Assembly (NCBI GenBank): GCA_963422375.2
Contig: CAXXKD010000001.1
Span: 160,001 to 224,000 of the forward strand
Reading direction: 5' to 3'
Source: Bryobacterales bacterium
GTDB taxonomy: Bacteria; Acidobacteriota; Terriglobia; Bryobacterales; UBA6623
DNA length: 64,000 bases
The notes beneath the pieces were generated by a model, which was not told the DNA's origin, searched no databases, and saw only the letters and a list, made by a program, of their open reading frames with translations. The stretch's first letter is position 1. Each line of letters begins with the position of its first letter. Positions 3,070 through 33,418 of the stretch are shown here, piece by piece. The translations under genes were made by a program, and so were the position numbers.

Positions 3070-4599
3070 GGGAATTATATATCTGAGTGCCGAGGGAATC
3101 AAGTCGGCAAATTATCAAGCCATAATAAGATTTCATATTTCTTCCGACTTTCCGTTGATATTCTGTGGTGTTTATTGGTAGAATAGTTCCAGTAGTGGAT
3201 ACCGTAAATGAAGAAACAAGGTCCCGGAAAGTGGTTCCGTAAAGGCATCACATTGATCGAAGTGATCGCCATGTTCCCCGATGACGAATCCGCGGAAAGA
3301 TGGTTCGCTGCCATGCGCTGGCCGGACGGCCACGCGTGCCCCCACTGCCGCGGATCCAGCGTGCAGTCCGGCGCGGCCCACCCTTCGATGCCGTACCGTT
3401 GCCGCGGCTGCGGCAAGCGCTTTTCGGTGCGCACCGGCAGCGTGATGGCCGACACCAAGCTCGGCTACCGCACCCGGGCCGTCGCCCTGTTCCTGCTGGC
3501 CACCGGCATTAAGGGCGTCTCGAGCATGAAGCTGCACCGCGATCCGGGCATCAGCCGGAAGTCGGCCTGGCACCTGGCGCACCGCATCCGCGCGTGCTGG
3601 GAGCGCGCACAGGGCCTGTTCGCCGGCCCGGTGGAGGTGGACGAGACCTACGTCGGCGGCAAGGAGCGCAACAAGAAGGAGCGCAACCAGCACGAGAGCA
3701 AGAAGGCCCGCGCCGGGCGCGGGCCCGTCGGCAAGACCCCGGTGGCGGGGGCGCGGGACCGCGCCACGAACGCAGTGGCCGCGCGGCCGCTGCCGGGCAC
3801 CGCCGAGGGCGACCTGCAGGGCTTCGTGCGCGGCCGGGTCGCGCCGGGCGCGCAGCTCCGCTCCGACGAGGCGGCGGCCTGCGCCGGCATGGCGGAGTTC
3901 GCGCACGAAGCCGTCCAGCATTCCGGCGGCGAGTACGTGCGCGGGGCGGCGCATACGAACGGCATCGAGTCGTTTTGGTCCCTGTTCAAGCGCGGCCTCT
4001 ACGGAACCTATCACCGGATGAGCGTCCGTCATCCGGGTCGCTACCTCACGGAGTTCGCGGGACGGTGCAACGACCGCGACTGCGACACGGCGGAACGGAT
4101 GCGGCGCATGGCGCGGGGCCTGGTCGGCCGGACGCTGACCTACCGGCAGCTGACCGGCAAGGCCGCGGTCGCGGCCCGAGCGGCGCCCTCCGAGCTGAGC
4201 GCCGCAGCCCGCTGCCGACGCACTCTTCACGCTCGATGCGCTTCACGCTCGGTGCGAGGGGCGCGCCGGATCTGGAATCCCCCGGCGCGACCCGAGTCCG
4301 GCCCGGACCATCCATGCAGGCCGTCGAGCGCCGGGGATCCGCTGTCTTCGGCCCTCGGAGGGCACGCAAGCGGCTTGCAAGGGGTGCCCTCCACCGCAAA
4401 CCGGATTCCACCGGGCATGCGAGGGGGCCTCTCTTATCCGTGCCTCGTCCATTCCGCTGGCAGGTTCGATTCAGATACGATCCCACCTTTCCGTGCCTAC
4501 CGCGGCTGCATTCGAATGACCCGAGCCAGATGCCGACCTCCCTGCTCAGAGCAGTTCTAGTCGGACATGGCGTTGTCGGCACTCAGATATATAATTCCC
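3070..4599 (+). mobile_element. IS1595-family element, copy 1, both ends present
   Basis: 24-bp TIR GGGAATTATATATCTGAGTGCCGA at 3070 and its inverse ending at 4599. TTTTTTA on both flanks. Confidence 0.95.
3208..4179 (+). pseudogene. IS1595 transposase (Zn ribbon + ISXO2-like DDE); stop lost, ORF reads through to 4560
   Basis: CPHC..YRCRGC, VEVDETY, SDE, HTNGIESFWSLFKRG. The TGA present in copies 2 and 4 is CGA here (4177-4179). Confidence 0.85.
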
Positions 4600-4607
4600 T
4601 TTTTTAA

Positions 4608-5030
4608 TTGAATGGCGGCAACATCCGCGGGGACACCGCTGCGGGAGTTGCCTTGCGCCCCAATCTCACAGGTGCGTCATTCAAGTCCTCCAGCCAAGGC
4701 CAAGCCTCGACGGCCGGCGTGATCGGATTCGACTGGCTCAACGAAGATGCCTTCGAGACTCCGGCACCATTCACTCTGGGGAACGCGGGACGGACTCTCC
4801 TGGGAATTCGAGGACCGGCCCGAGTCAACTTCGACGTGATGCTAGCGAAGAACTTCCGCTGGGGCGAGGGATGGCGGGCGCGCTTCAGCGTGGAAGCCTA
4901 CGACTTCACCAACACGTCTGCGTTCAACATCCCGAATATCACGCTGGACAGTGGGAGCTTCGGGATTGTATCCGGCACGCTGCCCAGCAGTCGCAGAATC
5001 ATGCAGATGGGGCTGCAGATTACCTTCTAG
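4608..5030 (+). pseudogene. C-terminal fragment of Oar-like TonB-dependent receptor
   Basis: RPNL..AF..PAPFTLGNAGR..GP..VNFD..LAKNF..F.VEAY.FTN..F..P..FG..RIMQMGLQITF*. The 5' part is lost at the IS end. Confidence 0.85.
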
Positions 5031-5179
5031 CAAGTGTCAGCTCAAGCCGATTCTCTCTTGGCGGCTGGGACCGACGAGACTCGTCTGTTCCGGCCGCCTT
5101 TCTCAACCAAGCGGCCCGGCGGCGTCGTGGTCGCGAGACGCGTCTTGGGCCCTGCCCTCATCTGGTCGGCAGCGAGCTA

Positions 5180-5434
5180 GTGCCCGTGACAAAACTCGTA
5201 TCACCTTGAAAAAAAAGGTGTTAGATCCAATCTGTCAAGGCGAAGATTTCGCTGGAATGCTACGACTAGTCCGAAATCCTGGCGATTCTGCGTAGAGGGC
5301 GGAAATCTTCGCGATTGGCGGCTGAGCAACTTCCGACCTTGGGCCTTATATGTTGTGTTGGGAGCTTCAACTGACCTCAGGATGTAGTATGAAATGCTGA
5401 TCGGGCCAGAATTCAGGGGTTTTGTCACAAGCAC
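5180..5434 (+). mobile_element. 255-bp MITE (IS1182/IS5-like ends)
   Basis: IRs GTGCCCGTGACAAAAC / GTTTTGTCACAAGCAC. Perfect flanking direct repeat GAGCTA (5174-5179, 5435-5440). The left ~150 bp recur inverted at 59750-59897. Confidence 0.8.
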
Positions 5435-6008
5435 GAGCTAAGAGCGCTGTCGGTGTTCCCGAGGGCGCCCGCGTTCCGCATTCCTTGATCGCTCGAGCCT
5501 CGGTGCCGGGCCCGACCCGGGCTAGGCGGTAGATTCGCGCCGACTGTACTCCCCCCGCCTCACCGGCCTGCAACTCCCGAAGGACGGCCGCAGCCAGCGC
5601 GGTCGGAGGCATGGGAGGCTGCTCGGTTGAGGTATGCGCGGATTCGGGTCACGTCCCGAACGCGAGCGACGGTGCAGCCCAAGCCGGAACGGGCGTTGCC
5701 CGCGGAGGCTGGCCGAGGCGTCCTAATGCCGGACGTCCCCTTCCCCGACCTTGGCGGCGATGAATCCGCTGCGGCTGCCCTGCGTCGTCAGCCACGTCCA
5801 TTGGACCGCCTTCGGGCCTTCCGCGGCCGGATTGAGGGCCAACTGGACCCGCTTGCAGTGTAGTCGGTCGCTCCGACCGAGGTCGAGAGGGCGCAACCCC
5901 GATCCGGCATTCCCCTACGGCTACATTCTGGTAGAGTAATGTACTAGACAGCACAGCTTATCCCGAATACGGCGCAGGCTGTATGAATGGTGATCGGAAG
6001 GTAATTGG

Positions 6009-8822
6009 ATGACAGAACACGATTCTCCCGGGAACATCGGCCGAGGCCTCGGAGCGGCGGGCCACCTGCTAGCGGCCGGCGCTCTGGCCGCTTGCTTGTT
6101 GGTCATAGTGGTTCAGCCCGCAGGCGCTCAGGAGTGCCTAGAGGCGACGGTGGTCGACCCGTCCGGGGCGGCGGTCGCCAACGCCACGGTGTTGATCGGC
6201 GCGAGCGAGCGGCCGACCGACGATCTCGGAGTTGCAACGTTTTGCGGGCTCGGCGATGGCCCGCACTCGGTGGTCGCCGTCGCCCCGGGCTTGGCGCCGG
6301 CGGAAATCACGGTGACGCAATCGTCTGGTGCCGTGCGGATCCCTCTAGCGCTCGAGACCGTGACCGACCAGATCGTGGTGATCGGAAGTCGCACCGAAGG
6401 TCGCACAGTGCTCGAGTCGGCCGTTCCCGTCGACATAGTCGCCAGCGACGAATTCTCGCAGCAAGGAGACGTCGACGTAGCGAACCAGTTGCGCAACACC
6501 GTGCCGTCGTTCAACGTCAACATGAACCCCATCAGCGACGCCGGCACGATCGTCAGGCCGGCCAGCCTGCGCAATCTTGCTCCCGACCACACGCTCTTGC
6601 TCGTGAATGGCAAGCGTCGCCACCGCGCCGCCGTGATTCACTGGCTCGCCAGCGGGCCTACCGACGGTGCTCAGGGGCCCGACCTCGCGCCGATTCCGTC
6701 AATCGCCATTCAGCGCGCGGAGGTGCTTCGCGACGGCGCGTCCGCGCAGTACGGATCCGACGCCATCGCCGGCGTGCTGAATTTCGTTCTGAAAGACGCG
6801 TCCCAAGGCGGCACCATCCAAGTGACGGCCGGCGGCTACGGGGCGGGCGACGGGCAGAGCCTCACCTTTGCCGGCAATGTCGGCCTGCCGCTCGGGGAGG
6901 GCGGCTTCGCCAACCTGAGTCTCGAGTACGGCAACTCGGACCCCACCGACCGCGCCGTGCAGCGCTACGACGCGACCCAGCTCATTGCCAACGGCAACAC
7001 ACACGTTCGGAGCCCTACGGCCCAGATCTGGGGCCAGCCCCGTATCGACGACGACGTCAAGTTCTTCGGCAATTTCGGCAAGTACGTAGGCGGCACGACC
7101 CAGATCTACGCCCATACGAACTATGCCAGCAAGCACGTCGACGGCGGCTTCTACTTCCGCAATCCACACACGCGAGGCGGCGTCTTCAGCGGCGACGGCG
7201 GGCAGACGCTGCTGGTCGGCGACATGCTCGACGCCCGGGACGGCACCTTGGACGGCTCGGCCGGCTGCCCGACGGTGCGGGTCGGCGGCGGCCGGATCCT
7301 CGATCCGGACAACTACCAGAGCGTGCTCGACGATCCGAACTGCTTCACCTTCCACCAGCCTTTCGCCGGCGCTCCGAACGGGAAGCCGGGCGGCTTCACG
7401 CCGCAGTTTGGCGGTGACTCCCAGGACAGCTCGATCGTGGCCGGCTTGCGCGGCACGTTTGCGCCGAACCTGATCTGGGACGCCAGCCTCAGTCTCGGCA
7501 CCAACTTCATCGACTTCGTCATCTACAACACGGTAAATGCCTCGATGGGCCCGGAGTCCCCGACGGAATTCGATCCCGGCAACTCCAGGCAGCAGGACAC
7601 GAATATCAACTTCGACATCGCCTACGCCGCCTCTGATAACCTGCACCTCGCGACGGGCTTCGAATGGCGGAACGAGGAGTTCACGATCGAGGCCGGCGAG
7701 CCGGCGTCGTGGCAGTTCGGCCCGCTCGCCCCGCAAGGCTTCAGCGCCGCTTCGAACGGATTTCCCGGCTTCAGCCCCGTCGCCGAGGGGAGCTGGGGCC
7801 GCAGCAACTACGCCGTCTACGGAGATATCGAGCTGGGCGGGGCGGACAGCCGCTACACGGTCGGCGGCGCGGTTCGCGCCGAGAGGTTCAGCGATTTCGG
7901 CACGACCGTCAACTACAAGGTCTCGGCCCGCGGCGAACTGACGGACTTCTTTGCGTTGCGCGGCGGCGGCAGCAGCGGCTTCCGTGCGCCGACGCCCGGA
8001 CAGCAGAACGCGTTCAACGTTACTTCGGAATTCAACGCGGACGTCGGAGACATCATTAACAATGGCACGATCCCGTCCATCTCGGAGGTAGCCAAGCTGG
8101 TCGGAGGCCAGGCGCTGAAGCCCGAGAGGTCGCGCAACTACACCGTCGGCTCGGTCGTCGAGAAGGGGCAGTTCAGCCTCACTACCGACTACTTCCATAT
8201 CGACCTATTCGACCGACTGACCATCTCGCAGCGGTTCTCCCTGCGGCCGGAGCAGGTCGACGCGCTCGTGGCCGAGGGCATTACCAGCGCGGCTAACCTC
8301 GGCACGTTCCGCTTCTTCACGAACCAGATCGAGACTTCGACGCAGGGCGTGGACGTGGTGGCGACGTACGCACCCGAATCGCTTGACGGCAAGACCGTGT
8401 TCAGCTTCCTGTGGAATCACACCAAGACAGCAGTCATCAGCCAAGAGTCGGACATCCTGAGCGAACGGGAAATCCACTTGTTCGAGAACGCGTTCCCGGA
8501 GACCCGCTGGAGTTTCACCTTGCGCCAGAACGAACGGCGCTTCCGCGTCATGGCGCGCCTGAACTACTGGGGCGACTTCTACGACAAGGACGACGCCCGC
8601 AACTACGGGAGCGAGTATCTCATCGATCTCGAGCTCACCTACAAGCTGACCGAGTCGTTCTCCCTGTCGGGGGGCGGCCAGAACATCTTGAACAACTACC
8701 CCGAGCAGAACCCAGACGCGTTCATCGGTCTAGGAAACCTCTACCCGCAGACCGCACCGTTCGGCTTCAACGGAGGGTACTACTACATGCGCCTGACCTA
8801 CAACTGGGGTGCCAGCTTCTAG
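6009..8822 (+). CDS. TonB-dependent receptor with N-terminal carboxypeptidase-regulatory-like domain
   Basis: Signal peptide, IVVIGSR TonB box, plug motifs LLLVNGKRRH and EVLRDGASAQYGSDAIAGVLNFVLK, GFRAPT, C-terminal aromatic beta-strand. Confidence 0.95.
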   Translation: MTEHDSPGNIGRGLGAAGHLLAAGALAACLLVIVVQPAGAQECLEATVVDPSGAAVANATVLIGASERPTDDLGVATFCGLGDGPHSVVAVAPGLAPAEITVTQSSGAVRIPLALETVTDQIVVIGSRTEGRTVLESAVPVDIVASDEFSQQGDVDVANQLRNTVPSFNVNMNPISDAGTIVRPASLRNLAPDHTLLLVNGKRRHRAAVIHWLASGPTDGAQGPDLAPIPSIAIQRAEVLRDGASAQYGSDAIAGVLNFVLKDASQGGTIQVTAGGYGAGDGQSLTFAGNVGLPLGEGGFANLSLEYGNSDPTDRAVQRYDATQLIANGNTHVRSPTAQIWGQPRIDDDVKFFGNFGKYVGGTTQIYAHTNYASKHVDGGFYFRNPHTRGGVFSGDGGQTLLVGDMLDARDGTLDGSAGCPTVRVGGGRILDPDNYQSVLDDPNCFTFHQPFAGAPNGKPGGFTPQFGGDSQDSSIVAGLRGTFAPNLIWDASLSLGTNFIDFVIYNTVNASMGPESPTEFDPGNSRQQDTNINFDIAYAASDNLHLATGFEWRNEEFTIEAGEPASWQFGPLAPQGFSAASNGFPGFSPVAEGSWGRSNYAVYGDIELGGADSRYTVGGAVRAERFSDFGTTVNYKVSARGELTDFFALRGGGSSGFRAPTPGQQNAFNVTSEFNADVGDIINNGTIPSISEVAKLVGGQALKPERSRNYTVGSVVEKGQFSLTTDYFHIDLFDRLTISQRFSLRPEQVDALVAEGITSAANLGTFRFFTNQIETSTQGVDVVATYAPESLDGKTVFSFLWNHTKTAVISQESDILSEREIHLFENAFPETRWSFTLRQNERRFRVMARLNYWGDFYDKDDARNYGSEYLIDLELTYKLTESFSLSGGGQNILNNYPEQNPDAFIGLGNLYPQTAPFGFNGGYYYMRLTYNWGASF

Positions 8823-9085
8823 CCCGAATTCGCCGATTGGGGAACCTGATGGCTCGCGAAGCACAGCACGGCAAATGTGTAGGGAATCTGGACGGTCGCA
8901 GTTGGCACCACGAGGTCTGCCGAGACCGGATCACGCCGCTATGCCCTGCAAGAGAGTCACGCCGGTTCCTTCCCGCTCGGCTGGCGCGCAGGTCAGGGAA
9001 TGAGACGTCTCGAGACAGCTTGCCCCGAGGGCAGGTCGCAAGATCGAAAGGGGTAGGAGTTGATCGAAACATCTTCCTAGCTTGA

Positions 9086-10637
9086 ATGGAATACCGGATC
9101 CCGGCCGGGCATCCAGATTCTTCGGAGCCTAACCGTCCTAGCGCTCGGGCCCTCTTGGCGGCCGTGCCCGCCACGGCCCAGGACTGTCTCGAGGTAACCG
9201 TGGTCGACCCGTCAGGGGCGGCAGTCGCGAATTCGACCGTAGTGATCGGCCCGAGCGAGCAGCCCACCGACGACCTTGGCGTCGCGACCTTCTGCGGTCT
9301 TGGGGACTGGCCCCACTCGGTCCTCGCGTTGGCCCCGGGCCTGGCCCCGGCGGAAATCACGATCCAGCAGTCGGCCGGTGCCGTGCAGATCCCCCTAGCG
9401 CTCGAGACGGTGAGCGACCGTATCGTCGTCATCGGCAGCCGCCGCAGGGGCGCGCAGTGCTGGAGTCATCCGTGCCCGTCGATATCGTCGGGAGTGAGGA
9501 CTTCACCCAGCAAGGCCAGACTGACCTGGCCAACCAACTGCGCAACACGGTCCCGTCGTTCAACGTCAACTCGAACCCCATCAGCGACTCCGGCACGATC
9601 GTGCGGCCGGCCAGCCTGCGCAACATGGCTCCGGACCACACGTTGCTGCTCGTGAACGGCAAGCTCCGCCACCGCGCCGCCGTGATTAACTTCTTCGCGG
9701 TCGGGCCGACGGCCGGTGCGCAGGGACCTGACCTGACGCCCATTCCGTCGATCGCGGTCCAGCGCGCGGAGGTCCAGCGCGACGGAGCGTCGGCGCAGTA
9801 CGGATCCGACGCCATCGCCCGGGGTTCTCAACTTCGTCCTGAAGGACGCTTCGCAGGGCGGCAGCGTCCAGGTGACCGCCGGGGGCTACAGCGCGGGCGA
9901 CGGCCAGAACCTCACGTTCGCGGGCAATGCCGGACTGCCTCTAGGCGGGGAGGGTTCGCCAACCTGAGTCTCGAGTACGGCAATTCCCGGCCCACCAACC
10001 GCGCCGTGCAGCGCTACGACGCGGCACGGCTGATCGCCCACGGCAACAACTACGTCCGCAGTCCGACGGCCCAGGACTGGGGTGAGCCTCGCATCGACGA
10101 CGACGTCAAGTTCTTCGGTAATTTCGGCAAGTACGTGGGCGGCACGAAGCAGGCCTACGCCCATGCGAACTATGCCGCCAAGCACGTCGACGGCGGCTTC
10201 TACTTTCGCAACCCGCACACCCGTGGCGGCGTCTACAGCGGCGACGGCGGCAAGACCCTGCTCGTCGGCGATCTCCTCGATGCCAAGGACGGTGTCTTGG
10301 GCAGTTCCGCCGGCTGCCCGACCGTGCGGGTCGGAGGAGGCCGGATCCTCGATCCGGACAACTACCAGCGGGTGGTTAACGATCCCAACTGCTTCACCTT
10401 CCACAAGCCGTTCGCCGGCGCTCCGGAGGGGAGGCCGGGCGGGTTCACGCCGCAGTTCGGAGGGGACTCCCAGGACAGCTCGATCGTCGCGGGTCTGCGT
10501 GGCACCTTCCCCCGAACCTTGTCTGGGACGCCAGCATGAGCCTCGGCACGCACATCCTAGACCTGTTCATCTACAACACGGTGAATGCTTCGATGGGACC
10601 GGAGTTCCCGACGATGTTCGATCCGGGCGACTACTGA
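9086..10637 (+). pseudogene. Tandem paralogue of the TonB-dependent receptor, frameshifted and truncated
   Basis: Collinear high similarity to 6009-8822 (QDCLEVTVVDPSG.., GFYFRNPHTRGG). Frameshifts near 9150, 9440, 9820, 9945 and 10510. Ends just before the IS at 10654. Confidence 0.9.
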
Positions 10638-10653: not shown

Positions 10654-11694
10654 CCTGATTACCCACAAGACTCAGCCAAGGTTAGGAGACGGTAAGGCAT
10701 GGGCGGGGTGCGCACGGAGGCGTGGAGCAGGCGGGGGACCAGCACCGCCAGATCGTAGCGGCGGTTGAAGCGGTAGCGGAACTCGGCGAGGTACCGCGGC
10801 AGGTGCTTGCCGTCGAGCGAATGGCAGGTTCCCGCCAGGGACTGCTTGACGTTCGCCAGCATCGTGTTGACCCGGAAGAAGCGGGAATCGCCGCAGCTCC
10901 GCTGCCCGCCTCCGGTGACGGTCGGCACGTGCTCGCAGCCGGCGCCGGCCACGTCCCGGAAGCAGGCCAAGCCGTCGGAATGCACCTCCGTGCCGGGCTG
11001 CAAGTGCCGCCCGGCCCACGCTGCCAGCGTCTTCTTGCGGAAGCCCGCCACGCCGCTCATGCGCATCCTTGCCGGCTGGCCGTCGGCGGTGACCTGCACG
11101 GCGGCCACGAACGGCGTCTTGCCCGCCGCGCCGCGCCCGCGCTTGCCGCCGCTCCGCTCCCCGCCCCAGTAGGCATCGTCCACCTGCACGATGCCGCCCG
11201 GCGGCACGCGCTCGTCGCGCTCCTTCATCACTTGCAGGAGCTTGTGCTTCATCTTCCAAGCCGTGTTCCGGCTCACGCCCAGCTGCCGCGCCAGTTCCAG
11301 CGACGAAACGCCGTGCTTGCCCTGCGTCAGCAGGTGGATCGCCAGCAACCGGACGGTCAGCGGCAGCTGGGTGGCGGCGCAGATCGTGCCGGCGACGAGG
11401 GAGGTCCGGCGGTGGCAGGCATTGCGGCATGGCACTGCCAGAGCTTGCGGGAGCGGATGCGGCAGTGTCGCCGGGAGCCGCACTCCGGGCAGCGGAAGCC
11501 GTCCGGCCAGCGGGCGTTGAAGACGGCCTGCTCGCATGGCCCCTCGCTGCCGTAGCGCTGCAGGAACTTGCCCAGGCTGAGTCCCTTCTGGAATTGCACG
11601 CGATTGCGTTTCAGCTGCTATCCCCTTTCCTGTCAGAGATTTCCGATCTCCTTCAGTATAGCATATCCTCGGCTGACGTTCGTTGTTAATCAGG
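10654..11694 (-). mobile_element. IS1595-family element of a second type; transposase frameshifted (~11600 to 10659)
   Basis: IRs CCTGATTA..TCAGCC / GGCTGA..TAATCAGG. QFQKGLSL..RWPDGFRCPECG, VQVDDAYWGG, HSDGLACF, YLAEF.YRFNRR. Confidence 0.9.
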
Positions 11695-13208
11695 ATAAGA
11701 TTTCATATTTCTTCTGACTTTCCGTTGAAATTCTGTGGTGTTTCTTGGTGGAATAGTTCCAGTAGGGGATACCGTAAATGAAGAAACAAGGTCCCGGAAA
11801 GTGGTTCCGTAAAGGCATCACATTGATCGAAGTGATCGCCATGTTCCCCGATGACGAATCCGCGGAAAAGTGGTTCGCCTCCATGCGCTGGCCCGACGGC
11901 CCCGCGTGCCCCCACTGCCTCGGATCCAGCGTGCAGTCCGGTGCGGCCCACCCTTCGATGCCGTACCGTTGCCGCGGCTGCGGCAAGCGCTTTTCCGTGC
12001 GCAGCGGCAGCGTGATGGCCGACACCAAGCTCGGCTACCGCACCCGGGCCGTCGCCCTGTTCCTGCTGACCACCGGCATCAAGGGCGTCTCGAGCATGAA
12101 GCTGCACCGTGACCCGGGCATCAGCCAAAAGTCGGCCCGGCACCTGGCGCACCGCATCCGCGCGTGCCGGGAGCGGGATCAGGGCCTGTTCGCCGGCCCG
12201 GTGGAGGTGGACGAGACCTGCGTCGGCGGCAAGGAACGCAACCGGCACGAGAGGAAGAAGGCCCGCGCCGGGCGCGGGCCCGTCGGCAAGACGCCCGTGG
12301 CGGGGGCGCGGGACCGCGCCACGAACGCAGTGGCCGCGCGGCCGCTGCCGGGCACCGCCAAGGGCGACTTGCAGGGCTTCGTGCGCGGCCGGGTCGCGCC
12401 GGGGGCGCAGGTCCGCTCCGACGAGGCGGCGGCCTACGCCGGCATGGCGGAGTTCCCGCACGAAGCGGTCAGGCACTCCGGCGCTCCGGCGGCGAGTACG
12501 TGCGCGGGGCAGCGCATGCGAACGGCATCGAATCGTTTGGGTCCCTGTTCAAGCGCGGCCTGTACGGAACCTATCACCGGATGAGCGTCCGTCATCTCGG
12601 CCGCTACCTCACGGAGTTCGCGGGACGGTACAACGACCGCGACTGCGACACATCGGAACAACAGAGGAACAACAGAGGAACAGATGCGGCGCATGGCGCG
12701 GGGCTTGGTCCGCCGGACGCTGACCTACCGGCAGCTGACCGGCGCAGCTGACCGGCAAGGCCGCGGTCGCGGCCTGAGCGGCGCCCGCCGAGCTGAGCGC
12801 GACAGCCCGCTGCGGGCGCGCTCTTCACGCTCGGTGCGCTTCACGCTCGGTACGAGGGGCGCACCGGATCCGGAATGCCCCGGTGCGACCCCGGTCCGGC
12901 CCGGACCGTCCATGCAGGCCGTCGAGCACCGGGGATCCGCTGTTTTCGGCCCTCGCAGGGCCTGCAAGCGGCTTGCAAGGGGTGCCCTGCCACCGCCAAC
13001 CGGGTTCCACCGGGGCAACCGGGGCATGCGAGGCGGCCTCTCTAGTCCCTTCCTCGTCCAATCCGCTGGCAGGCTCGATTCAGATACGATCCCACCCCTC
13101 TGTGCCCGCCGCGGCCGCACTCGAATGACCCGAGCTCGACACCGACCTCCCTGCTCACAGCAGTTCTAGTCGGACATGGCGTCGTCGGCACTCAGATATA
13201 TAATTCCC
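11695..13208 (+). mobile_element. IS1595 copy 2; left TIR lost, transposase (from 11778) frameshifted near 12480
   Basis: Near-identical to 3126-4599. Right TIR ..CACTCAGATATATAATTCCC ends at 13208. Short internal duplications present. Confidence 0.95.
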
Positions 13209-13542: not shown

Positions 13543-16446
13543 ATGCCGCGGATTAGCGAGGCGGCCTTCAACGTCGAGCTGGCCAACGTCCTGCGCGGGA
13601 AGAATCCGCGCTGGCTGCATCGCATCGGCGCGGAGCAGTCCGAGGTCTTTGAGCAACGGGCGCTCCGCCCGGACATCCTAGTCGATAATCCCGGCGGGCT
13701 GCCGGTGGCTGTAGAGACCGAGTTCCTGCCCGCCGGCGGCGTCGAGGAGGATGCGCGCAGGCGTCTCGGCTTGGTGGTCGGAGACTTGGGTGCCGCGGTA
13801 GAGCAGAGCCTGGCGGTGCGGGTACCGGTCTCCCTGCGCCAGGAGCAAGGCGACCTCGCGCGGCGGATTCAGTCCGCGGAATTCGCCTACTGCGTCTTCT
13901 CCTTGGCGGAGACCGAGCCCGCTCGCTGGCCGGCCTCGGGCTGGATCCGCGGCGGTGCCGACGACCTGGCGGCCTGCATCGAGCGGGTCTCCGTCTCCGA
14001 GCGCCTGATCGCGAAGGGGATCGAGATTCTGGAGCGTCGCGTGCGGCAGGCGGCCCGGCGCGTCCTGACGGACAGCGAGCTCGGTTTCGACGGGCCGTTG
14101 CTGGAGATGGCCGAACTGCTGCACCAGGAGCCGGGCGAGCAAACGGCAAGGATGGCGATGGCGATCCTCGCCAACGCCCTGATCTTCCACAACTCGATTG
14201 CCGGTGCGCACCGGCTCAAGAGGATCGACGAGATCCGGGACGGCCTAGGCGACATCTCGCCGCGCCTGATCCAAGAGCAATGGCGGCACGTCCTGAGGAA
14301 CATCAACTACTGGCCGATCTTCGAGATCGCCTCGGCGATTCTCGGCGGCTTGCGGGCGAGCTCGACGAAGCCGGTGGTGGCGCTGCTGGCCGGCGCGGCG
14401 GGCGAGCTGTCCAACGTAGGCGTCACGAGCCTGCACGACATGTCGGGGCGCATGTTCCAGCGGCTGATCGTGGACCGCAAGTTCCTCGCCACGTTCTACA
14501 CGCTGCCGGTCTCCGCGGCCCTGCTGGGCGAGCTGGCGGTGTCGCGAATGCGGTGCGACTGGTCCAGCGGGAAGGCGCTGGCGGCGTTGCGGATCGCCGA
14601 TCTGGCCTGCGGCACGGGCACGCTGATCTCGGCAGCTTACCAAGCGGTCCTAGGCCGGCACCGGCGGGCAGGGGGCAACGACGCGAGAGTGCATGCGGCC
14701 ATGATCGAACGGTCCTTGGTGGCGGCGGACATCATGCCTGCGGCAACGCACTTAGCGGCCTCTATGCTGTCCAGCGCTCATCCGGGGCTGAAATTCCGCC
14801 GGACGCGGGTGCTGACGATGCCCTACGGCAGGCAGGCGGATGGGCGCCCCTTGGCGCTGGGCTCGCTGGACCTGATCACCGAAGAGGTGGCGCGACCGCT
14901 GTTCGGCACGGGGCGGAGGGTGGCTTCCGGGGACCGCCCGGATGCCGAGGACTGCGACGGCCGGGACGAGGTCGCTTTGGAGCACGGGGCGGCGGACCTG
15001 GTGATCATGAACCCGCCGTTCACGCGGCCGACGAACCACGAGTCGTCGACGGTTCCCGTGCCTTCGTTTGCCGGCTTCGAAAAGACGGCGGAGGAGCAAA
15101 GAGCGATGGCGCGGCACTTGGCCCGCATTCGCGGTGCGCTGGGGACTGCGGCGGGTCACGGCAACGCCGGGATCGCGTCGAACTTCGTCGACTTGGCGCA
15201 CGCCAAGGCTAGGCCTGGGGGTGTGGTGGCGCTGGTGCTGCCGATCGCGGCGGTAAGCGGCGTCGCTTGGCGGAACATGCGGGCGCTGCTCGCGCGGCAC
15301 TACTGCGACCTGACGGTTGTCACGCTGGCGGTGAGCGGCGACACCGCTAGGGCGTTTTCGGCCGACACGGGCATGGCCGAGGCGCTGGTCGTTGCCACTC
15401 GCAAGCGAGACGATTCGGAAGCGAGCGGCGACACCATGTTCGTCAGCCTGTACCAGCGTCCGGAGAGCCTCGCGGCGGCCGCGGAGACGGCTAGGGTGAT
15501 CGCCACGCTGACGGCGGACAGCCGTAGCGGCCGTCTGAGAATCGGCGACAGCGAGGTGGGCAGCTTTGTGAGGGCGCCGCTAAGTGAGGGCGGTTGCGCA
15601 CGGGTGCGGGAGCCGAGGCTCGCGCACGCCATGATGTCGTTGCGCGGAGGACTTCTGAGTCTCCCGCGACTGGCCCCGTGCGAGCTGCCGGTCGCGCTGC
15701 TCGGTGAGCTAGGCGACCGGGGCCCGCTGCACCGTGATGTCTCGGGGGCAGAGACTGGTTCAGGCGGGCGGCCACGAGGCCCGTTCGAAGTGGTCCCGCT
15801 GGAGGGGACGCCCATTCAGGCGGTACCGTATCCGATGCTGTGGGCGCATTCAGCGGAGCGCGAGCGGCGGCTCGTCGTCGAGCCAGACACCACAGGAGAG
15901 CCTAGGCCGGGATGTGCTGACCGGGCCATTGACCTCTGGAAGCGGACGGCTGGTCGGCTGCACTTCAACTTGGATTTCCAGCTGAATTCGCAATGCCTCG
16001 CGGCGTGCCTGACGCAGGAGCCGGCGATGGGAGGCAGGGCGTGGCCAACCTTCTTGCTGAAGCGGGCTCAGCTGGAACAGGCCCTTGCGCTCTGCGCGAA
16101 CTCCACGCTTGGCCTGATGGCTTTCTGGTGGATCGGGAGCAGGCAGCAGGAGGGGCGGTCCGTGGTCACGATCAAGTCGCTGCCGGGCCTGCCGGTCCTT
16201 GACGTTCGTGCGCTCGACGATTCGCGAGTCGACGTAGCGCGGAGCGCATTTGACAGCTTCCGGCGCCGGACCTTCCTGCCGGCCAACGAGGCGTACCGAG
16301 ACGAGACGCGCCACGCCCTTGACCGCTTCGTTTTGGTGGATCTCTTTGGCTTGTCCGAGGCAGTTCTCGAGCCGCTCGCCGTCGTCCGGGCCCAGTGGTG
16401 CGCAGAGCCATCGGTACATGGAGGCAAGGCATCCGCGATTCAGTAG
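13543..16446 (+). CDS. Type IIG-like restriction-modification fusion (nuclease + amino-methyltransferase + TRD)
   Basis: GAGGAGG RBS. N-terminal RPDILV..AVETE (PD-(D/E)xK-like), FYT, motif I IADLACGTGTL, motif IV DLVIMNPPF, long C-terminal region. Confidence 0.8.
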   Translation: MPRISEAAFNVELANVLRGKNPRWLHRIGAEQSEVFEQRALRPDILVDNPGGLPVAVETEFLPAGGVEEDARRRLGLVVGDLGAAVEQSLAVRVPVSLRQEQGDLARRIQSAEFAYCVFSLAETEPARWPASGWIRGGADDLAACIERVSVSERLIAKGIEILERRVRQAARRVLTDSELGFDGPLLEMAELLHQEPGEQTARMAMAILANALIFHNSIAGAHRLKRIDEIRDGLGDISPRLIQEQWRHVLRNINYWPIFEIASAILGGLRASSTKPVVALLAGAAGELSNVGVTSLHDMSGRMFQRLIVDRKFLATFYTLPVSAALLGELAVSRMRCDWSSGKALAALRIADLACGTGTLISAAYQAVLGRHRRAGGNDARVHAAMIERSLVAADIMPAATHLAASMLSSAHPGLKFRRTRVLTMPYGRQADGRPLALGSLDLITEEVARPLFGTGRRVASGDRPDAEDCDGRDEVALEHGAADLVIMNPPFTRPTNHESSTVPVPSFAGFEKTAEEQRAMARHLARIRGALGTAAGHGNAGIASNFVDLAHAKARPGGVVALVLPIAAVSGVAWRNMRALLARHYCDLTVVTLAVSGDTARAFSADTGMAEALVVATRKRDDSEASGDTMFVSLYQRPESLAAAAETARVIATLTADSRSGRLRIGDSEVGSFVRAPLSEGGCARVREPRLAHAMMSLRGGLLSLPRLAPCELPVALLGELGDRGPLHRDVSGAETGSGGRPRGPFEVVPLEGTPIQAVPYPMLWAHSAERERRLVVEPDTTGEPRPGCADRAIDLWKRTAGRLHFNLDFQLNSQCLAACLTQEPAMGGRAWPTFLLKRAQLEQALALCANSTLGLMAFWWIGSRQQEGRSVVTIKSLPGLPVLDVRALDDSRVDVARSAFDSFRRRTFLPANEAYRDETRHALDRFVLVDLFGLSEAVLEPLAVVRAQWCAEPSVHGGKASAIQ

Positions 16447-16449
16447 CCC

Positions 16450-26128: not shown

Positions 26129-26324
26129 CTCCGCCCCCGGATCTGCGACCCCTGCACCGATTCAGGCGGCGACCTCCCCTGAATCCTCCTGCGGGACCGA
26201 GCGCGACATAGGTCGCGCGCAATGGCGCTAGGGCATACAATACAATGTCGGCGACCTCCTGCTACGGAAATCGCCGGCCTGACGGAGTGCCCGTGGCGGC
26301 CCGTGGCCGCCACGGGCAGTCGCG

Positions 26325-26582
26325 CTACTCGTAGTAGGCTGCGTTGCGATCGATGAACTCGTCCCACTCCTCGGGAAGATCCTCTTCCGCGAAGATCGCC
26401 GAAACGGGGCAGACAGGCACGCACGCGCCGCAGTCGATGCACTCCTCCGGGTCGATGTAGAGCATCTCTTCCGTCTCGAAGTCGTCTTCGTCCGACTTAG
26501 GGTGGATGCAGTCCACCGGGCAGGCGTCCACGCAAGCGGTGTCCTTCGTGCCGATGCACGGCTCCGCGATGATGTAGGCCAT
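26325..26582 (-). CDS. Dicluster (7Fe-type) ferredoxin
   Basis: MAYIIAEPC..CVDACPVDCI..IDPEECIDCGACVPVCPV. Confidence 0.95.
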   Translation of the reverse strand: MAYIIAEPCIGTKDTACVDACPVDCIHPKSDEDDFETEEMLYIDPEECIDCGACVPVCPVSAIFAEEDLPEEWDEFIDRNAAYYE

Positions 26583-26748
26583 GGTCTAGAACCTCTCTCC
26601 TGAACTGACTCGAACTACGCTCTCGCCGACCTGTCCGCCGCTTCGCCTATCAGGACCGACGGCCTGCCGAGAAACCGATTCTAGCACAGTGCCCGCCGGG
26701 CGGAATGCGTCCGAGCCTCGACCTAGCCCGAGCGTATCATGATGCGTA

Positions 26749-27090
26749 ATGACGATGAAGCGATGGATCACGATCCTCGCCGCGAGCTTGCTGATGGTGC
26801 CTCTCTTGGCTCAGACGGGCGGACGAGGGCGAGGCGGGCGCAATCCGCCGTTCGGGGCGGCTCCGCAGGATCGCCTGCCGGACGGACGCTCAAGGACGCT
26901 CATGATCCTCAAGAAGGATGTCGAGCGGTCCACCGAGGATATGGCCAAGGTCATCGAGCTGGCCACCGAACTGCAAGGCGAGATCGAGAAGAATGAGTTC
27001 CACACGGTCGATCTGGGCAGCGTCCGCAAGGCCGAGGAGATCATTAAGCTCGTCCGGCGCGTCAAGTCGCGCATGAGCCGGTCGCAGTAG
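26749..27090 (+). CDS. Small secreted helical protein
   Basis: Signal peptide followed by a coiled-coil-like region. Confidence 0.65.
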   Translation: MTMKRWITILAASLLMVPLLAQTGGRGRGGRNPPFGAAPQDRLPDGRSRTLMILKKDVERSTEDMAKVIELATELQGEIEKNEFHTVDLGSVRKAEEIIKLVRRVKSRMSRSQ

Positions 27091-27139
27091 GTCGCCGCGA
27101 CCGGCTTGGGCGGGGCGGCAGCGCGGGCATTTTCGAGAG

Positions 27140-28699
27140 ATGCGAACCACCGGTTCGGGTATTCCGGCGGTCGTGGTCATGCTGGCATGGAGATACTCCG
27201 AGCCGCCTTCGTTTCGCACCGAACCGTCGCTGGTCGCTATTCCGAACCCTGCGGCGCCGCTGGCAGCCGCGCTGTCGTTCTGTCCCGCCCTGATCGATGT
27301 CGCCGACGGCGTGCATATGTGGCGCTTGGAATACGGCCCCGAATTCGATTCGTCGGAAGTAGAGCTTGCGGTCGTCGGCACCCGGTCCGACACGCGCCAC
27401 GAGATCAGCGTCGACCTCCGCTCCGGCCGGGGGTGCCGAGGTCGCGCATCCCGACGCCTTTGTGTTCCGCACGCCTCTCCTGCCGGAGGTCGCGATCGAG
27501 TTCCCGAAGATCCGCGTCCATCTCAGCGCGCCGGACGAGATCGAACCGGGGGTGACGGTTTTCAACCCACGACGACGTCAGATGGGCTCTGGCCGGGACG
27601 CGTCTGAGTTCAACGCCGGGTTCGGCATGCTGGCGGTCTTGGACCATGCCGGCTAGGTCGTGGCGTACCGCCGGATCGATTCCCGCATCAGCGATTTCGA
27701 GAAGGCTTGCAACGGCAACCTGCTGTTCGTCACGGCTGACTTTCGCCGGGTCGAGATGGACTGCCTCGGCAAGACGGCCTGCCGGTGGTATGCTGCCGGC
27801 CGTCCGCATGGGCCCGCCGACAGCATCGCCATGGACACTCTCACCCTCCATCACGAGATTGACGAGATGCCGAACGGGACCTTATTCGCGCTGAGCTCCG
27901 AGTGGCGGGAAGTCGATGACTACTACCCAGACGAATATGACGAAGCCCCACCTCCCATGCGGCAGAGGGTCATGGGTGACGTAATCGTCGATTTCGGGCG
28001 CGAAACTGGGAAGGTTGCGTGGGGGTGGAAGGCGTTCGATCCCACGGACCCGCACCGTAGCACGTACGAGACGCTCTCGGATTATTGGATCCGCGGCGGA
28101 TTCCCGCTACCAACCGGCGGCCGTCAAGATTGACCGCGAGACCTGGCTAGTCGAGTGGATCTTCGGCGAGCCGAGCGGGTGGGGCGACCTCTACGAGAAC
28201 ATCCTGAGGACTGACGGCGATGTCCAGTGGCCCTACTACCTGCGCTCACCCGAGTCGACGCCGCACGGCACTCTAATGATCTTCGACAACGGGAACTACC
28301 AGGCGCGCCCGTTCACAAAGCCCGCCGATGTTGTCGACACCTAACTCGCAGGCCGTCGAGTTCTCCATCGACGAAGACAGCATGACTGCCCGCCAGCGTC
28401 GGCAGTCCGAGACCATGGGACCCGACTGGGTCGTCGCGATTGCGATGGGCGACGTTGGCTGGCTGCCCCATACTGAGAACGTCCTCGCGGCCTACGGAGC
28501 CTTGCTGGATCCCGCTTCGATCGGCAGCGCGCGGTGGCAGTCGAGCTCCCGCTTAGAGTTCAGCCAGCGGACTCGCCCGCGCGAGTTCATGCGCAGCGAC
28601 CCGCCCGAGGTTGTCTACGAGGTTGCGCTTCAAGGCGATGGATCGGACTTGGGATGGTCACTGAATGGAGTGGGGCGGATTGATTGCATCGGTCCATAG
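27140..28699 (+). pseudogene. Aryl-sulfate sulfotransferase (ASST) pseudogene
   Basis: Fragments PNPAAPLAA, LHHEIDEMPNG, GDVIVDF, GTLMIFDNGN, AVEFSIDE, MGDV.WLP.T.NVL. Several frameshifts and an in-frame TAG at 27654-27656. Confidence 0.8.
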
Positions 28700-29930
28700 G
28701 GCACAGCTTGGCTTGAACGCCGACGAGGCGATTCGGGCGGGACGGGCGTGCGCCCGCCGGCCATGCCTGCATCGCTTCGAATGACGATAGTGCCGTTGAA
28801 CAGGCGAGAGTCGTTGGCGGAATTCTAATGCTCGTGCGGGCAAGAGAGACGATCAATCTCGAGGACTCTTGGACTTCGGCGGGTCTTGCTGAAAGCATAT
28901 GCAGCATTCCTCGCGATTTGCGAGTCCAATCTTGATCAAGTTTGAAACCGACCTAAGGAATGGGGCCTTCCGACAGCTTCAGTTGACAAGACCTTGGACT
29001 GCAAGACTACTGTACTACTGTCGGATTCTCAGTACGGTCACCAGTCCGGAGCACCTCCGTTTCAGTGGACATTCGGTGTGAATCACGCCTGTGCCGAGGT
29101 TGTGAAACTACGGCCCGCTGGGAATCACAGATTCAAGATCGTGATGAGTGGGACGGTAAGCGTCGATTCCCTGGGCCCGAGCGTTCGGATCTCTTGAAAT
29201 CGCAACCAAGTCCACCAGGTCTGATGCTAACCGCACAACGATTGATTGGAGAGGATGGCGGTTCGACGCGAAAGAGGGGCCAAGGGGCTCTGACTCTGTC
29301 GCGACGGTGCACGTCTGGCTGCTTGACGAGACTCGGAATTCCGTACATCAAAGGATTGGTCAAATACGGTCGTCCCGGCGTGAGGCCGTGGGATTCTCCG
29401 CAAGGCCTTTCGATTCAGGCACTTGAGGCGGTGCCCTGACGCGAGTCGGCGGACGGCGGACCGAGGGGCCCGGCTAGCGAAGCCGCCGCCCGCCCGCAGG
29501 GGCCTTGCCGAGCAACACCCCTGCCCGAGGGGGCAACGGCGGTCGGACCTGACATCGGGACGAGGGGGCGGCGGTCAGTCAGGGTCCGGCGCGAGACGCG
29601 GCTCGCGACGCAGGATCCCCGTCCCGCTGCGTGTCGCGAGGGCGTGGCGGGCGGCCCCTAGCCGGCGCCTTGGCGGACCCTCCCGCGCGACGGCCGCCGG
29701 CGCTGCCGTGCGCGACCTCGGGCAGGCCCGGGGCACGGCCGGCGCTGCCTCGGCCCGGCGAGCGGGTCGGCCGGCGCTGGCCGGGACCTCCCGGAAGGTG
29801 TAGGGCACCGGCTCCGGCCGCGGTCCCGAGGCGCATTTCGAGAATTTTATATCAGATCATTATTGCATTGATATTGGATCTATTTGGAATGAAATAGATT
29901 TTCCAATTATTTCCATTATTTTTTTCTATA

Positions 29931-32309
29931 CGCCCATTCAACTCCGAAGTGCGACACACGGGTAAGGGGCGGTGGGCTAGGATACTAGGACCACAGTAGC
30001 AGATCCAGCGGCGCCGGACAAGCCGCTGCCGGGCCGAAGCGGGGGGCCGCGTCCCGGGCAGGCGGGAATGCGTGTCCCGTTTCCGGAAGGGAATTATATA
30101 TCTGAGTGCCGAGGCAACCGATTTTGCAAATTATCAGTCCATAAATTAATTTCATATTTCTTCCGGAGATCTGTTGACAGTCGGTGGAGTATATTGATAG
30201 AATAGTTCCAATATATGAGGTCGTCTATGAAGCAGAAAGGTCCCGGGAAGTGATTTCGTAAAGGCATCACTCTGATTGAAGTGATCGCCATGTTCCGCGA
30301 TGACGAATCCGCGGAAAAGTGGTTCGCCTCCATGCGCTGGCCGGACGGTCCGGCATGCCCCCACTGCCGCGGCTCCAGCGTGCAGTCCGGCGCGGCCCAC
30401 CCTTCGATGCCGTACCGTTGCCGCGGCTGCGGCAAGCGCTTTTCCGTGCGCACCGGCAGCGTGATGGCCGACACTAAGCTCGGCTACCGCACCCGGGCCG
30501 TCGCCCTGTTCCTGCTGACCACTGGCATCAAGGGTGTCTCGAGCATGAAGCTGCACCGCGACCTAGGCATCAGCCAGAAGTCGGCCTGGCACCTGGCGCA
30601 CCGCATCCGCGCGTGCCGGGAGCGCGGGACCGCGCCACGAACGCAGTGGCCGCGCGGCCGCTGCCGGGCACCGCCAAGGGCGACCTGCAGGGCTTCGTGC
30701 GCGGCCGGGTCGCGCCGCGGGCGCAGCTCTACTCCGACGAGGCGGCGGCCTACGCCGGCATGGCGGAGTTCGTGGGACGGTGCAACGACCGCGACTGCGA
30801 CACGGCGGAACAGATGCGGCGCATGGCGCGGGGCCTGGTCGGCCGGACGCTGACCTACCGGCAGCTGACCGGCAAGGCCGCAGTCGCGGCCCGAGCGGCG
30901 CCCTCCGAGCCGAGCGCCGGGGATCCGCTGTCTTCGGCCCTCGGAGGGCACGCAAGCGGCTTGCAAGGGGTGCCCTCCACCGCCAACCGGATTCCACCGG
31001 GCATGCGAGGGGGCCTCTCTAATCCGTGCCTCGTCAATTCCGCTGGCAGGCTCGATTCAGATACGATCCCACCTTGCTGTGCCTACCGCGGCCGCATTCG
31101 AATGACCCGAGCCAGACCCGGAGGGTCGAATCCGCGCCTGTCCGGGCGCAGCTCCCCCGCGCCCCTGTCCCCGCGGCGGGCTGCCAGCCCTGCCTCAGCC
31201 CCGCGGCACCCGCTCCCGCGCCGCCGGGAAGACTTCCTCCGGCGTGCGCCCGCCCGGCACCTTCCGCGGACGCCGGTTCAGGCGGTCCCGCGCCTCCCGC
31301 ATCCGGGCCGGGTCCACCCGCCGCAGGTCCGTCCCCTGCGGGAAGTACTGCCGCGGCAGCCCGTTGGCATGCTCGTTCAGCCCGCGCTCCCAGGAGTGGC
31401 AGGGCCGCGCGAAGTAGAAGCCCGCCCCCAGCCGCTGCGCCACCTCCCGGTGCCTCCCGGTGCCCCGCGAACTCCTTGCCGCGAACTCCTTGCCGTTGTC
31501 GGCCGTGATCGTGCGCGTCACGGCCCCGCTCCCTGCGAGCATGGCCGTCATCGCCGCCCCGACCAGCTGCGCCGTGCGCCGGCTAACCGGCTGCACTAGC
31601 AGGTACTTGGAGAACCGGTCCACCAGCGTCACCAGCGTCCCGCGGCGCGGCCCGCCGATCACGGTGTCGGCCTCCCGGTCGCCGACGCGCGCCTGCGCTT
31701 GCGCCTCCGCCGGGCGCTCCGCGATGTCCGCGCGCCCCGGGATCAGGCCGCGGCCCGCCGTCCGGCCGACCCGCCGGACGCGCTTGCGGCCGCCCTGCCT
31801 CAGGTGCCGGTACAGCCGGCCCCCCTGCCGCCGGTCCGCGCGCACCAGCTGGTAGATCCGTTCAGGGCTGATCTCCAGCGCCCCTTCCCGCTTCAGCCGC
31901 GCCGCGACCTGCTCCGGGCTCCAGTCCTGCCGCAGGCAGTCCTCGATCCGCGCCCGCAGCGCCGACGTCAGCTGGCGCCGCCGCCGCTCCGCGCGCTCCC
32001 CCAGCTGTAGCTCGCCGCGCGCTCGCCCTCCGCCGGTCGGCCGTTGCGGCCCACTTCCCGGTAGATCGTGGCCCGCTTGCGGCCCGGCTGCCCGGCGATC
32101 CTGTCCGCTCCCTAGCCCGCCGCCCGCAGCGTCTCGATCCGGCAGCGCTCCTCCTGCCTCACGTGCGTGTAGCTCTTCCGCATCTGCCTCCCTGCTCCTT
32201 CCAGCACCTACCAGCCTACTGCCGCGACACCACCGGTCGCTGGCCCCCCCTCTCCCCTCCCTGCCATCTTGTGGCTCGGCGCGTGTCGCACTTCGGAGTT
32301 GAATGGGCG
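29931..32309 (-). mobile_element. IS30-family element (transposase 32183 to ~31195, broken) containing IS1595 copy 3
   Basis: IR CGCCCATTCAACTCCGAAGTGCGACAC at both ends. ATA on both flanks. MRKSYTH..ERCRI, GD.EADTV, TITADNGKEF, HSWERGLNEHANG, LNRRPRK. Confidence 0.92.
30089..31115 (+). mobile_element. IS1595 copy 3; nonsense codon, internal deletions, right end lost
   Basis: Left TIR at 30089. TGA at 30251. Deletions near 30625, 30770 and 30915. Confidence 0.9.
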
Positions 32310-32359
32310 ATATACTTTTAATTAAATCACATAATATAACAATATACTAGAATTGAAAT

Positions 32360-33418
32360 GGGAATTATATATCTGAGTGCCGAGGGAATCAAGTCGGCAA
32401 ATTATCAATCCATTATAAGATTTCATATTTCTCCCGAATTTCCGTTGACATTCTGTGGTGTTTCTTGGTAGAATAGTTCCAGTAGGGGATACCATAAATG
32501 AAGAAATCAGGTCCCGGAAAGTGGTTCCGTAAAGGCATCACATTGATCGAAGTGATCGCCATGTTCCCCGATGACGAATCCGCGGAAAAATGGTTCGCCT
32601 CCATGCGCTGGCCCGACGGTCCGGTATGCCCCCACTGCCGCGGCTCCAGCGTGCAGTCCGACGCGGCCCACCCTTCGATGCCGTACCGTTGCCGCGGCTG
32701 CGGGAAGCGCTTTTCGGTGCGCACCGGCAGCGTGATGGCCGACACCGAGCTCGGCTACCGCACCCGGGCCGTGGCCCTGTTCCTGCTGACCACCGGCATC
32801 AAGGGCGTCTCGAGCATGAAGCTGCACCGCGACCTAGGCATCAGCCGGAAGTCGGCCTGGCACCTGGCGCACCGCATCCGCGCGTGCCGGGAGCGGGATC
32901 GGGGCCTGTTCGCCGGCCCGGTGGAGGTGGACGAGACCTACGTCGGCGGCAAGGAACGCAACAAGCACGAGAGGAAGAAGGCCCGCGCCACGAACGCAGT
33001 GGCCGCGCGGCCGCTGCCGGGCACCGCCAAGGGCGACCTGCAGGGCTTCGTGCGCGGCCGGGTCGCGCCGGGGGCGCAGCTCTACTCCGACGAGGCGGCG
33101 GCCTACGCCGGCATGGCGGAGTTCGCGCACGAAGCCGTCAGGCACTCCGGCGGCGAGTACGTGCGCGGGGCAGCGCATGCGAACGGCATCGAGTCGTTTT
33201 GGTCCCTGTTCAAGCGCGGCCTGTACGGCACCTATCACCGGATGAGCGTCCGTCATCTCGGCCGCTACCTCACGGAGTTCGCGGGACGGTACAACGACCG
33301 CGACTGCGACACGGCGGAACGGATGCGGCGCATGGCGCGGGGCCTGGTCGGCCGGACGCTGACCTGCCGGCAGCTGACCGGCAAGGCCGCGGTCGCGGCC
33401 TGAGCGGCGACCGCCGCG
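32360..33418 (+). mobile_element. IS1595 copy 4 (transposase 32498-33403, 17-aa in-frame deletion), right end lost
   Basis: Left TIR at 32360. ORF near-identical to copy 1. Confidence 0.92.
32445..32474 (+). promoter_or_regulatory. Sigma70-like promoter of the IS1595 transposase
   Basis: TTGACA-18 nt-TAGAAT with TG before the -10. The same hexamers occur at 30174-30203 with a diverged spacer. Variants TTGATA and TTGAAA in copies 1 and 2. Confidence 0.7.

Follow-up and report, generated by a model that had tools for sequence, protein, structure and literature searches.

Why should the copies of an insertion sequence (IS) depart from one another, again and again, by the same kind of change and at residues that are normally conserved? 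The question is raised by a 64,000-nucleotide stretch of a Bryobacterales genome (GenBank assembly GCA_963422375.2, contig CAXXKD010000001.1, positions 160,001 to 224,000), hereafter the window, which holds four copies of one IS1595-family element besides other transposable elements. A first-pass annotation, made from the letters of the sequence, had described a directional, context-biased T>C/A>G hypermutation of these copies, and proposed either an analogue of fungal repeat-induced point mutation (RIP) or over-active Vsr-like repair tied to C5-methyltransferases. Comparing all copies in the genome, we find a repeat-dependent bias towards G:C in the variants that copies share. Its best explanation, and in our judgement a probable one, is short-tract, GC-biased gene conversion between ectopic IS copies.

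The genome (G000; 6.0 Mb in three contigs, 67% GC) consists of repeats for 15% of its length, and repeat clustering yielded 18 families with at least four copies. The two largest are both of the IS1595 type: the main family, which includes the four copies above, counts 104 copies, 88 of them near full length, and the second family counts 102.

Private and shared variants among IS copies

Variants were examined according to how many copies carry them. Private variants, defined as present in one copy only and collected from the 12 families with at least nine copies (a class that excludes sites altered in several copies), are balanced by type and show no context pattern. We counted 272 T>C, 653 C>T, 125 T>G, 178 C>A, 245 C>G and 48 T>A, which corresponds to 1.96, 2.12, 0.90, 0.58, 0.80 and 0.35 per 1000 copy-sites, respectively. 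With T>C and C>T so close, 'hypermutation' is not an apt term.

Shared variants, with the derived allele in at least 5% of copies, were scored in families of 88 and 102 copies at codons conserved in foreign homologues: 162 codons from 97 proteins for the main family (13 further conserved codons were set aside, as no ancestral allele is left) and 153 codons from 102 proteins for the second. We had dropped polarisation by majority consensus in favour of these homologues, since the derived allele is often the majority. T>C changes reached the threshold at 36 of 274 sites (23/146 in the main family, 13/128 in the second), and C>T changes at only 2 of 353 (2/181 and 0/172; Fisher p 7e-12). The corresponding figures were 18 of 291 for T>G (2/156 and 16/135), 1 of 481 for C>A (1/243 and 0/238), 0 of 292 for T>A (0/157 and 0/135) and 12 of 485 for C>G (4/245 and 8/240, three of the 12 being near-fixed family differences). 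Altogether, AT>GC changes occupy 54 of 565 sites, versus 3 of 834 for GC>AT (p 8e-19); all these p values are affected by the incomplete independence of sites within one family. The direction claimed by the first-pass annotation is therefore correct as AT>GC, but it is not one of T>C alone, T>G being equally common in the second family. The bias acts on the spread of variants, not on new mutation.

Every main-family copy departs from conserved residues, with 6 to 26 departures of up to 162. Individual changes can approach fixation, such as a W>R change in 76/88 copies of the main family, W>R in 96/98 and Y>C in 96/97 copies of the second, and four changes in an IS30-family element (21/21, 20/21, 17/21 and 20/22 copies). 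A C>R change in IS1634 is present in 3/3 copies spanning the position and, as these are low-copy remnants, may be one inherited event. In the second family, many T>G and C>G changes amount to conservative replacements (K>Q, M>L, F>L). Families differ in GC content, from 49% to 78% where the whole genome has 67%, and only some of them, though several, lie above 74%.

Each of the 11 IS1595 positions that the first-pass annotation lists (3541, 3595, 3856, 3877, 4063, 4177, 12111, 12135, 12216, 30778 and 33362) agrees with the window, and so do the altered motifs reported for IS30 (GDRE at 31683, RPCH at 31407, GLPR at 31362, KVPG at 31263), for the second IS1595 family (FRVN at 10877, GTCH at 10832) and for IS1634 (HVFRS at 58199, beyond the span that the annotation gave). 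A TGT>CGT change ascribed to the end of an IS481 could not be confirmed: no IS481 was located, the sole match being a weak one on the IS30 transposase. The first base of the IS30 inverted repeat is C at 48 of 49 genomic ends and T at one.

Could the variants be an artefact of sequencing, assembly or polishing limited to repeats? The signal is itself limited to repeats. However, when checked against sequencing data at the contig level, both alleles were found in the contigs of two samples (X1 and X5, of one study) at IS sites, 3344 and 4177 among them. Their shares are similar, G at site 3344 making up 74% and 83% of summed depth, versus 53/87 copies in the assembly. In the long single-copy pieces listed, the same contigs are identical to the assembly, and at most one sample can be the source of that assembly. 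A further sample, X6, has patchy coverage only. As both alleles are present while single-copy pieces are identical, the IS variants are very probably real, and an artefact is scarcely credible. Between positions 1 and 11600 of the window, both samples match the assembly in single-copy pieces of up to 5.2 kb. The population looks nearly clonal, since two separate samples show no single-copy differences.

Sequence context and the single-copy control

The claim of a context bias also holds. Unlinked C/T sites of the IS copies precede purines: y-GGG sites (y being the variable pyrimidine) comprise 16 variable and 16 invariant ones, and y-CCN sites are almost never variable. Foremost among the hot T contexts are C[T]GGG and G[T]AGG. 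Synonymous positions in single-copy genes follow an identical, strand-symmetric rule: their T share is 1.9% before AAG and rises to 43% before CCC. A model for which these positions were the sole training data predicts the hot IS sites with an area under the curve of 0.83. Because the rule is common to relatives and to 4/4 unrelated GC-rich replicons, we consider it ordinary in kind. In those four replicons (L250-L253) and in the relatives' loci, synonymous T is scarce before two purines and enriched before CC, on both strands.

Such a rule raises the possibility of recurrent mutation at hot spots genome-wide, for example after a past failure of mismatch repair, that would be visible only in unselected DNA. 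The predictive power of the synonymous-site model would fit this, as would the GC-ward lean of broken single-copy genes and solitary relics described below and the shortage of T before purines in G000 compared with its relatives, and the mutS signature of Pseudomonas aeruginosa, in passages of its description, has T>C at CTN and GTN, an overlapping context, but includes C>T (PMC11695600). For a comparison of genes with their orthologues we drew on about 1.2 Mb of genome G004 and on scattered loci, with 1100 predicted genes and 595 loci that could be matched; as hottest contexts we used CTGGG, GTAGG and TCTGG, chosen from the IS data. These contexts are altered at 400/613 copy-sites in the main IS family, or 65%, versus 3/67 sites in 25 strictly broken single-copy genes and 4/1655 sites in 475 intact ones; a looser set of broken genes gave 4/187. 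The broken genes are no younger, since their background changes exceed those of intact genes (C>T 1.31% versus 0.86%, other T>C 1.71% versus 0.36%, T>G 1.66% versus 0.39%). Mutation in single-copy DNA does lean GC-ward by about 3:1 and is about 3-fold hotter at hot contexts (small numbers), far below the IS level.

Solitary IS relics point the same way as the broken genes. Nine such IS1595 relics lean GC-ward with T>C at 45/608 and C>T at 25/793 sites, a ratio of 2.3, versus 915/12217 and 65/15387 in 124 high-copy loci, a ratio of about 18. The pairwise hot/cold ratio is likewise higher at higher copy number, 3.5-7.7 as against 1.2-1.4 in repeats of 2-4 copies, in a comparison whose low-copy repeats include genes under selection. 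Pseudogenes compared with their paralogues (T>C 19/1149, C>T 21/2068) are too few alone, and genes interrupted by an IS, which would be an age-matched control, provide only six candidates. The targeting of repeats claimed in the first-pass annotation is thus supported by the comparison of IS copies with dead single-copy genes, and its alternative of a genome-wide effect that shows only in unselected DNA is not. Other observations weigh against genome-wide hot spots: T is still retained at 390/8141 synonymous C-y-GGG sites, the mutS and mutL frames appear intact, strand has no effect, and the A:T>G:C hot spot of Escherichia coli, as given in passages of PMC13250602, is T before CCC, a cold context here, so that hot spots in the two cases differ. 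Such hot spots, largely refuted, are very unlikely to be the explanation.

Two further candidates were rejected. Creation of particular methylase motifs fails, as no single motif fits. Adenine deamination on one strand would leave T>G unexplained; moreover, hot sites read on the coding strand are T>C in 10 cases and A>G in 13, and there is no strand effect. An effect of the replication strand was likewise absent (0.397 versus 0.374, p 0.31), in a comparison where skew is weak and the strand call noisy.

Probable gene conversion and its alternatives

Several patterns argue for exchange between copies. In both large families, the farther apart two transversion polymorphisms lie, the weaker their linkage (permutation p 0.003). 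In the main clade alone, r2 is 0.20 for pairs 4-15 bp apart and only 0.04 for those separated by more than 300 bp (p 0.03), and decay is also seen in family F05 and weakly in F03. Indels cross clade boundaries: an insertion near 4088 is found in 16-17 copies of clade A and 5-6 of clade B, a 54-bp deletion in two copies of clade B and two of clade C, and a 9-bp insertion in eight copies of C and two of B. Multi-site blocks are common to different clades, and copies are fine mosaics. Fragments shorter than 300 bp carry 16 derived alleles, versus 25.3 expected. A toy model in which 92 copies undergo conversion one site at a time, fitted to the frequency classes, gave a log-likelihood of -443 with biased conversion, -504 with unbiased conversion and -577 without conversion (saturated model, -430), with a best fit at three events per site and a bias of 0.8. 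[quoted passage not shown]

How would this inactivate a family? IS copies would undergo frequent short-tract ectopic conversion, as the patterns above indicate indirectly, and mismatches in the heteroduplex would be resolved more often to the G:C allele, most strongly with T before purines. When a mutation arises once in about 100 copies, an AT>GC change would then spread to others and a GC>AT change would be erased. Since conserved Trp, Tyr, Leu, Gln, Lys and Met codons, as well as stop codons, are AT-containing positions, inactivating alleles would spread through whole families. The mildly GC-leaning input of mutation, with its roughly 3-fold excess in hot contexts (small numbers), may seed sites early. 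Candidate enzymes are an orphan Vsr, acting from T:G to C:G, and MutY.

Could the shared variants simply have been inherited, from dead master copies multiplied in trans or from earlier hosts? Clades do exist, near-fixed changes (96/98, 21/21, 3/3) could be single events, and many of the second-family changes are, as noted, conservative. Shared descent, however, predicts linkage, yet hot sites are unlinked at every distance (r2 0.018) and their frequencies are similar across clades. It gives no reason for a direction of 54 versus 3, and four-gamete results imply many origins of the hot alleles. We regard it as very unlikely.

The absence of linkage at hot sites is also the first of several observations that biased conversion does not readily accommodate. 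Hot sites are unlinked even to near neighbours, with no co-conversion seen there, which is the pattern expected from single-base patch repair or recurrent change. Linkage decay is non-significant in three smaller families (F04, F07 and F08), and similarity between copies does not increase with their proximity. In the toy model, the inferred input contains C>T in excess of T>C, in conflict with broken single-copy genes, which lean GC-ward by about 3:1; we therefore take from the model only the need for a bias. Sites C[T]GGG and G[T]AGG at conserved codons are altered in 12/12 cases, all at 28-98%, a regularity that suits a donor-independent rate in repeats. Mosaic polymorphism could partly predate insertion, and conversion is deduced from the patterns of copies in one genome, with no event observed in time. 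Among three relatives, G008 and G021 are without the skew, and only G015 hints at it (shared T>G 4, T>C 1, C>T 0). In G015 (L079-L090), identical Lys>Gln (A>C) changes recur across IS1595 subfamilies, including copies that are 99% identical. The burden of hot alleles per copy is unrelated to private variants (rho -0.04); this, like the missing effect of proximity, does not discriminate.

Some of these difficulties would vanish under homology-triggered mutagenesis, the main rival, in which repair between repeats would recruit error-prone Pol IV or DnaE2 to write G:C in particular contexts with no donor, in a RIP-like process of opposite direction. Such a process requires repeats, as observed, and accounts for the 12/12 mid-frequency hot sites and the missing linkage. 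The dinB gene lies near vsr, a second DnaE has a RecA-like neighbour, and Pol IV causes A-to-C changes in P. aeruginosa, as reported in part of PMC12318082. It fits poorly with what happens at identical contexts: when one site of a pair is hot, its partner is hot in just 17-22% of pairs, versus a base of 13%, and outcomes are mostly all-or-none. Site 4142 is altered in 36/74 copies of clades A and B and in 0/11 of clade C, despite identical flanks and although clade C is higher than A and B at other sites. Both observations point to dependence on a donor allele and so speak for conversion. Private variants, moreover, are unbiased. On this evidence we hold homology-triggered mutagenesis to be unlikely.

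A broader possibility, conceivable if doubtful, is a bacterial form of repeat-induced silencing. Ectopic pairing would trigger short-patch repair or synthesis that writes G:C, with a donor or not; orphan Vsr and MutY would serve as a genome defence, whole IS families would be extinguished in proportion to copy number, and the same bias would shape synonymous sites across GC-rich bacteria.

Candidate enzymes, known systems and other elements of the window

The mutS and mutL genes are predicted to be whole, with open frames of 878 and 631 amino acids and no stops, and recA likewise appears intact; no match to NucS was found in G000. The loss of mutSL considered in the first-pass annotation is therefore not borne out, and a hypermutator deficient in mismatch repair was rejected on these frames and because the signature is not in all unselected DNA. 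An intact vsr (TIGR00632 match, L057:8399-8836, near 2578600 of contig C2) is present, and Vsr behaves like a core gene, being found in 30/31 genomes of the genus. The gene is an orphan, with no methylase among the 15 neighbouring frames scanned and no PF00145 match nearby. C5-methylase (DNA_methylase) matches number 18 in the genome, none of them linked to the process. An element of more than 20 kb, 99.9% identical and carrying a C5-methylase, recurs at contig ends and inside C2 (coordinates include G000:C1:1-21509, C2:1307817-1341367, C3:479729-494719 and other contig ends). The second DnaE adjoins a RecA-like frame, which suggests an imuABC cassette.

Of the proposed Vsr-like repair tied to C5-methyltransferases, the vsr gene stands, and a tie to Dcm-type sites is not supported: besides lacking a cognate methylase nearby, the genome keeps T above 90% at 23/26 Dcm-type C[T]WGG sites in IS families. 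We rejected Dcm-linked very-short-patch repair on both counts, sites of the CCWGG type being mostly unconverted. T is in fact enriched at synonymous C-y-WGG sites of G000 (31% T at C-y-AGG and 42% at C-y-TGG, with 18% at C-y-AGG in relatives), an enrichment that may have been left by decay that escaped repair at a methylated motif of the Dcm type. As C-y-WGG is T-enriched genome-wide and C[T]WGG mostly unconverted, the classic Vsr motif is not the target. Nor is Vsr the whole answer, because T>G changes cannot come from T:G repair and call for another activity. MutY, to which a MutY-like frame with both domains corresponds here, removes A opposite G or C and would yield A>C as well as A>G. A Vsr of broad specificity that works on heteroduplex DNA is a candidate for the T>C part. 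Vsr enzymes perform short-patch repair of T:G to C:G, and broad-specificity and orphan forms exist, some acting in all contexts, according to passages of PMC6116569 and PMC12907096. MutY overexpression raises short recipient patches in Helicobacter pylori recombination, as stated in part of PMC2582958.

Fungal RIP is repeat-dependent and context-biased and inactivates transposons, through C:G to T:A transitions made in bursts of new mutations, with a dedicated C5-methyltransferase-like enzyme. The present process shares the dependence on repeats, the context bias and the choice of transposons. The analogy drawn in the first-pass annotation nonetheless breaks down: the direction here is AT>GC, what spreads is mainly existing variants, private variants carry no signature, and identical contexts are mostly all-or-none.

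The closest precedents concern gene conversion. For bacteria, Lassalle et al. (2015, PMC4450053) inferred gBGC from the recombination of alleles between strains; passages of that paper describe, as here, a bias of fixation towards G:C that is linked to recombination and by which deleterious alleles can spread, with biased repair as the proposed cause. The paper does not contain the word 'ectopic', whereas about 100 ectopic copies on one chromosome are at stake here, and their frequency spectrum is polarised and accompanied by a context rule and by a control in single-copy DNA. Short-tract conversion (median 101 bp) is described for paralogous regions of Mycobacterium tuberculosis, with T>C enriched and C>T depleted (bioRxiv 2026, PMC13061034, in passages). 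There, most events affect PE/PPE and esx genes and only seven fall in insertion sequences, in a MutS-less lineage with NucS, unlike G000; the same passages mention neither sweeps of inactivating alleles nor T>G, both features of the present case. Gene conversion among dead IS copies with common lesions was described in Wolbachia wBm (as cited in PMC3196728; see also PMC3205602). In the passage of PMC3196728 it appears as homogenising, with no base bias, whereas our copies are mosaic and their common lesions directional. In the open-access literature, we found no description of inactivating alleles being swept through IS families of bacteria by a biased conversion.

It has long been asked why the GC content of many bacteria is above the level predicted from their mutation spectrum, and evidence for bacterial gBGC has so far consisted of correlations across strains. 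A 100-copy IS family constitutes a population within one closed genome, which reveals the direction, strength and context of the bias and provides a single-copy control as well, and the frequency-spectrum test is repeatable on any IS-rich long-read genome. GC-biased conversion may help keep bacterial DNA GC-rich, and it offers a copy-number-dependent route to IS death across a whole family. Mutation spectra drawn from repeats can mislead, and so can IS consensus sequences, since the majority allele is often broken (the W>R changes above, at 76/88 and 96/98).

The repeats and transposable elements of the window are given in Table 1. In IS1595 copy 1, the transposase starts at 3208 and reads through the altered stop at 4177. 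The IS30 element, split by copy 3, has terminal inverted repeats of 30 nucleotides (29931-29960 and 32280-32309). Judging by its size, the short F17 repeat may be similar to a miniature inverted-repeat transposable element.

Table 1. Repeated and transposable elements located in the window
Element	Position	Strand	Basis
IS1595 copy 1, main family (F00)	3070..4599	+	Pfam PF12762 and PF12760, family clustering, polymorphic sites
Short AT-rich repeat, family F17, 60 copies, polymorphic among copies	5178..5434	.	Repeat clustering
Second IS1595 family member (102 copies)	10654..11703	-	Pfam, clustering, homologue polarisation
IS1595 copy 2, main family	11695..13208	+	Pfam, clustering
IS30-family element, 23 copies	29931..32309	-	Clustering, terminal repeats, homology match
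IS1595 copy 3, internal deletion, within IS30 element	30126..30919	+	Matched part, ends approximate
IS1595 copy 4, main family	32360..33419	+	Pfam, clustering
Low-copy transposase remnant (Pfam Transposase_29), adjoins copy 4	33420..34573	+	Pfam
IS1634 remnant, low copy	57808..59451	-	Copy comparison

Genome-wide, a crude detector found only six IS islands with coding signal on both flanks, so that genes seem to be seldom hit by an insertion, even though copies number in the hundreds. In the window, a 967-amino-acid frame at 13543-16446 has no Pfam match and a weak match to a defence-system DNA methyltransferase (E 8e-4). A fragment of an IS5-family transposase lies beside IS1595 copy 1 (2633-3049), and a repeat of unassigned type at 61083-61527 has about 13 further copies at roughly 70% identity.

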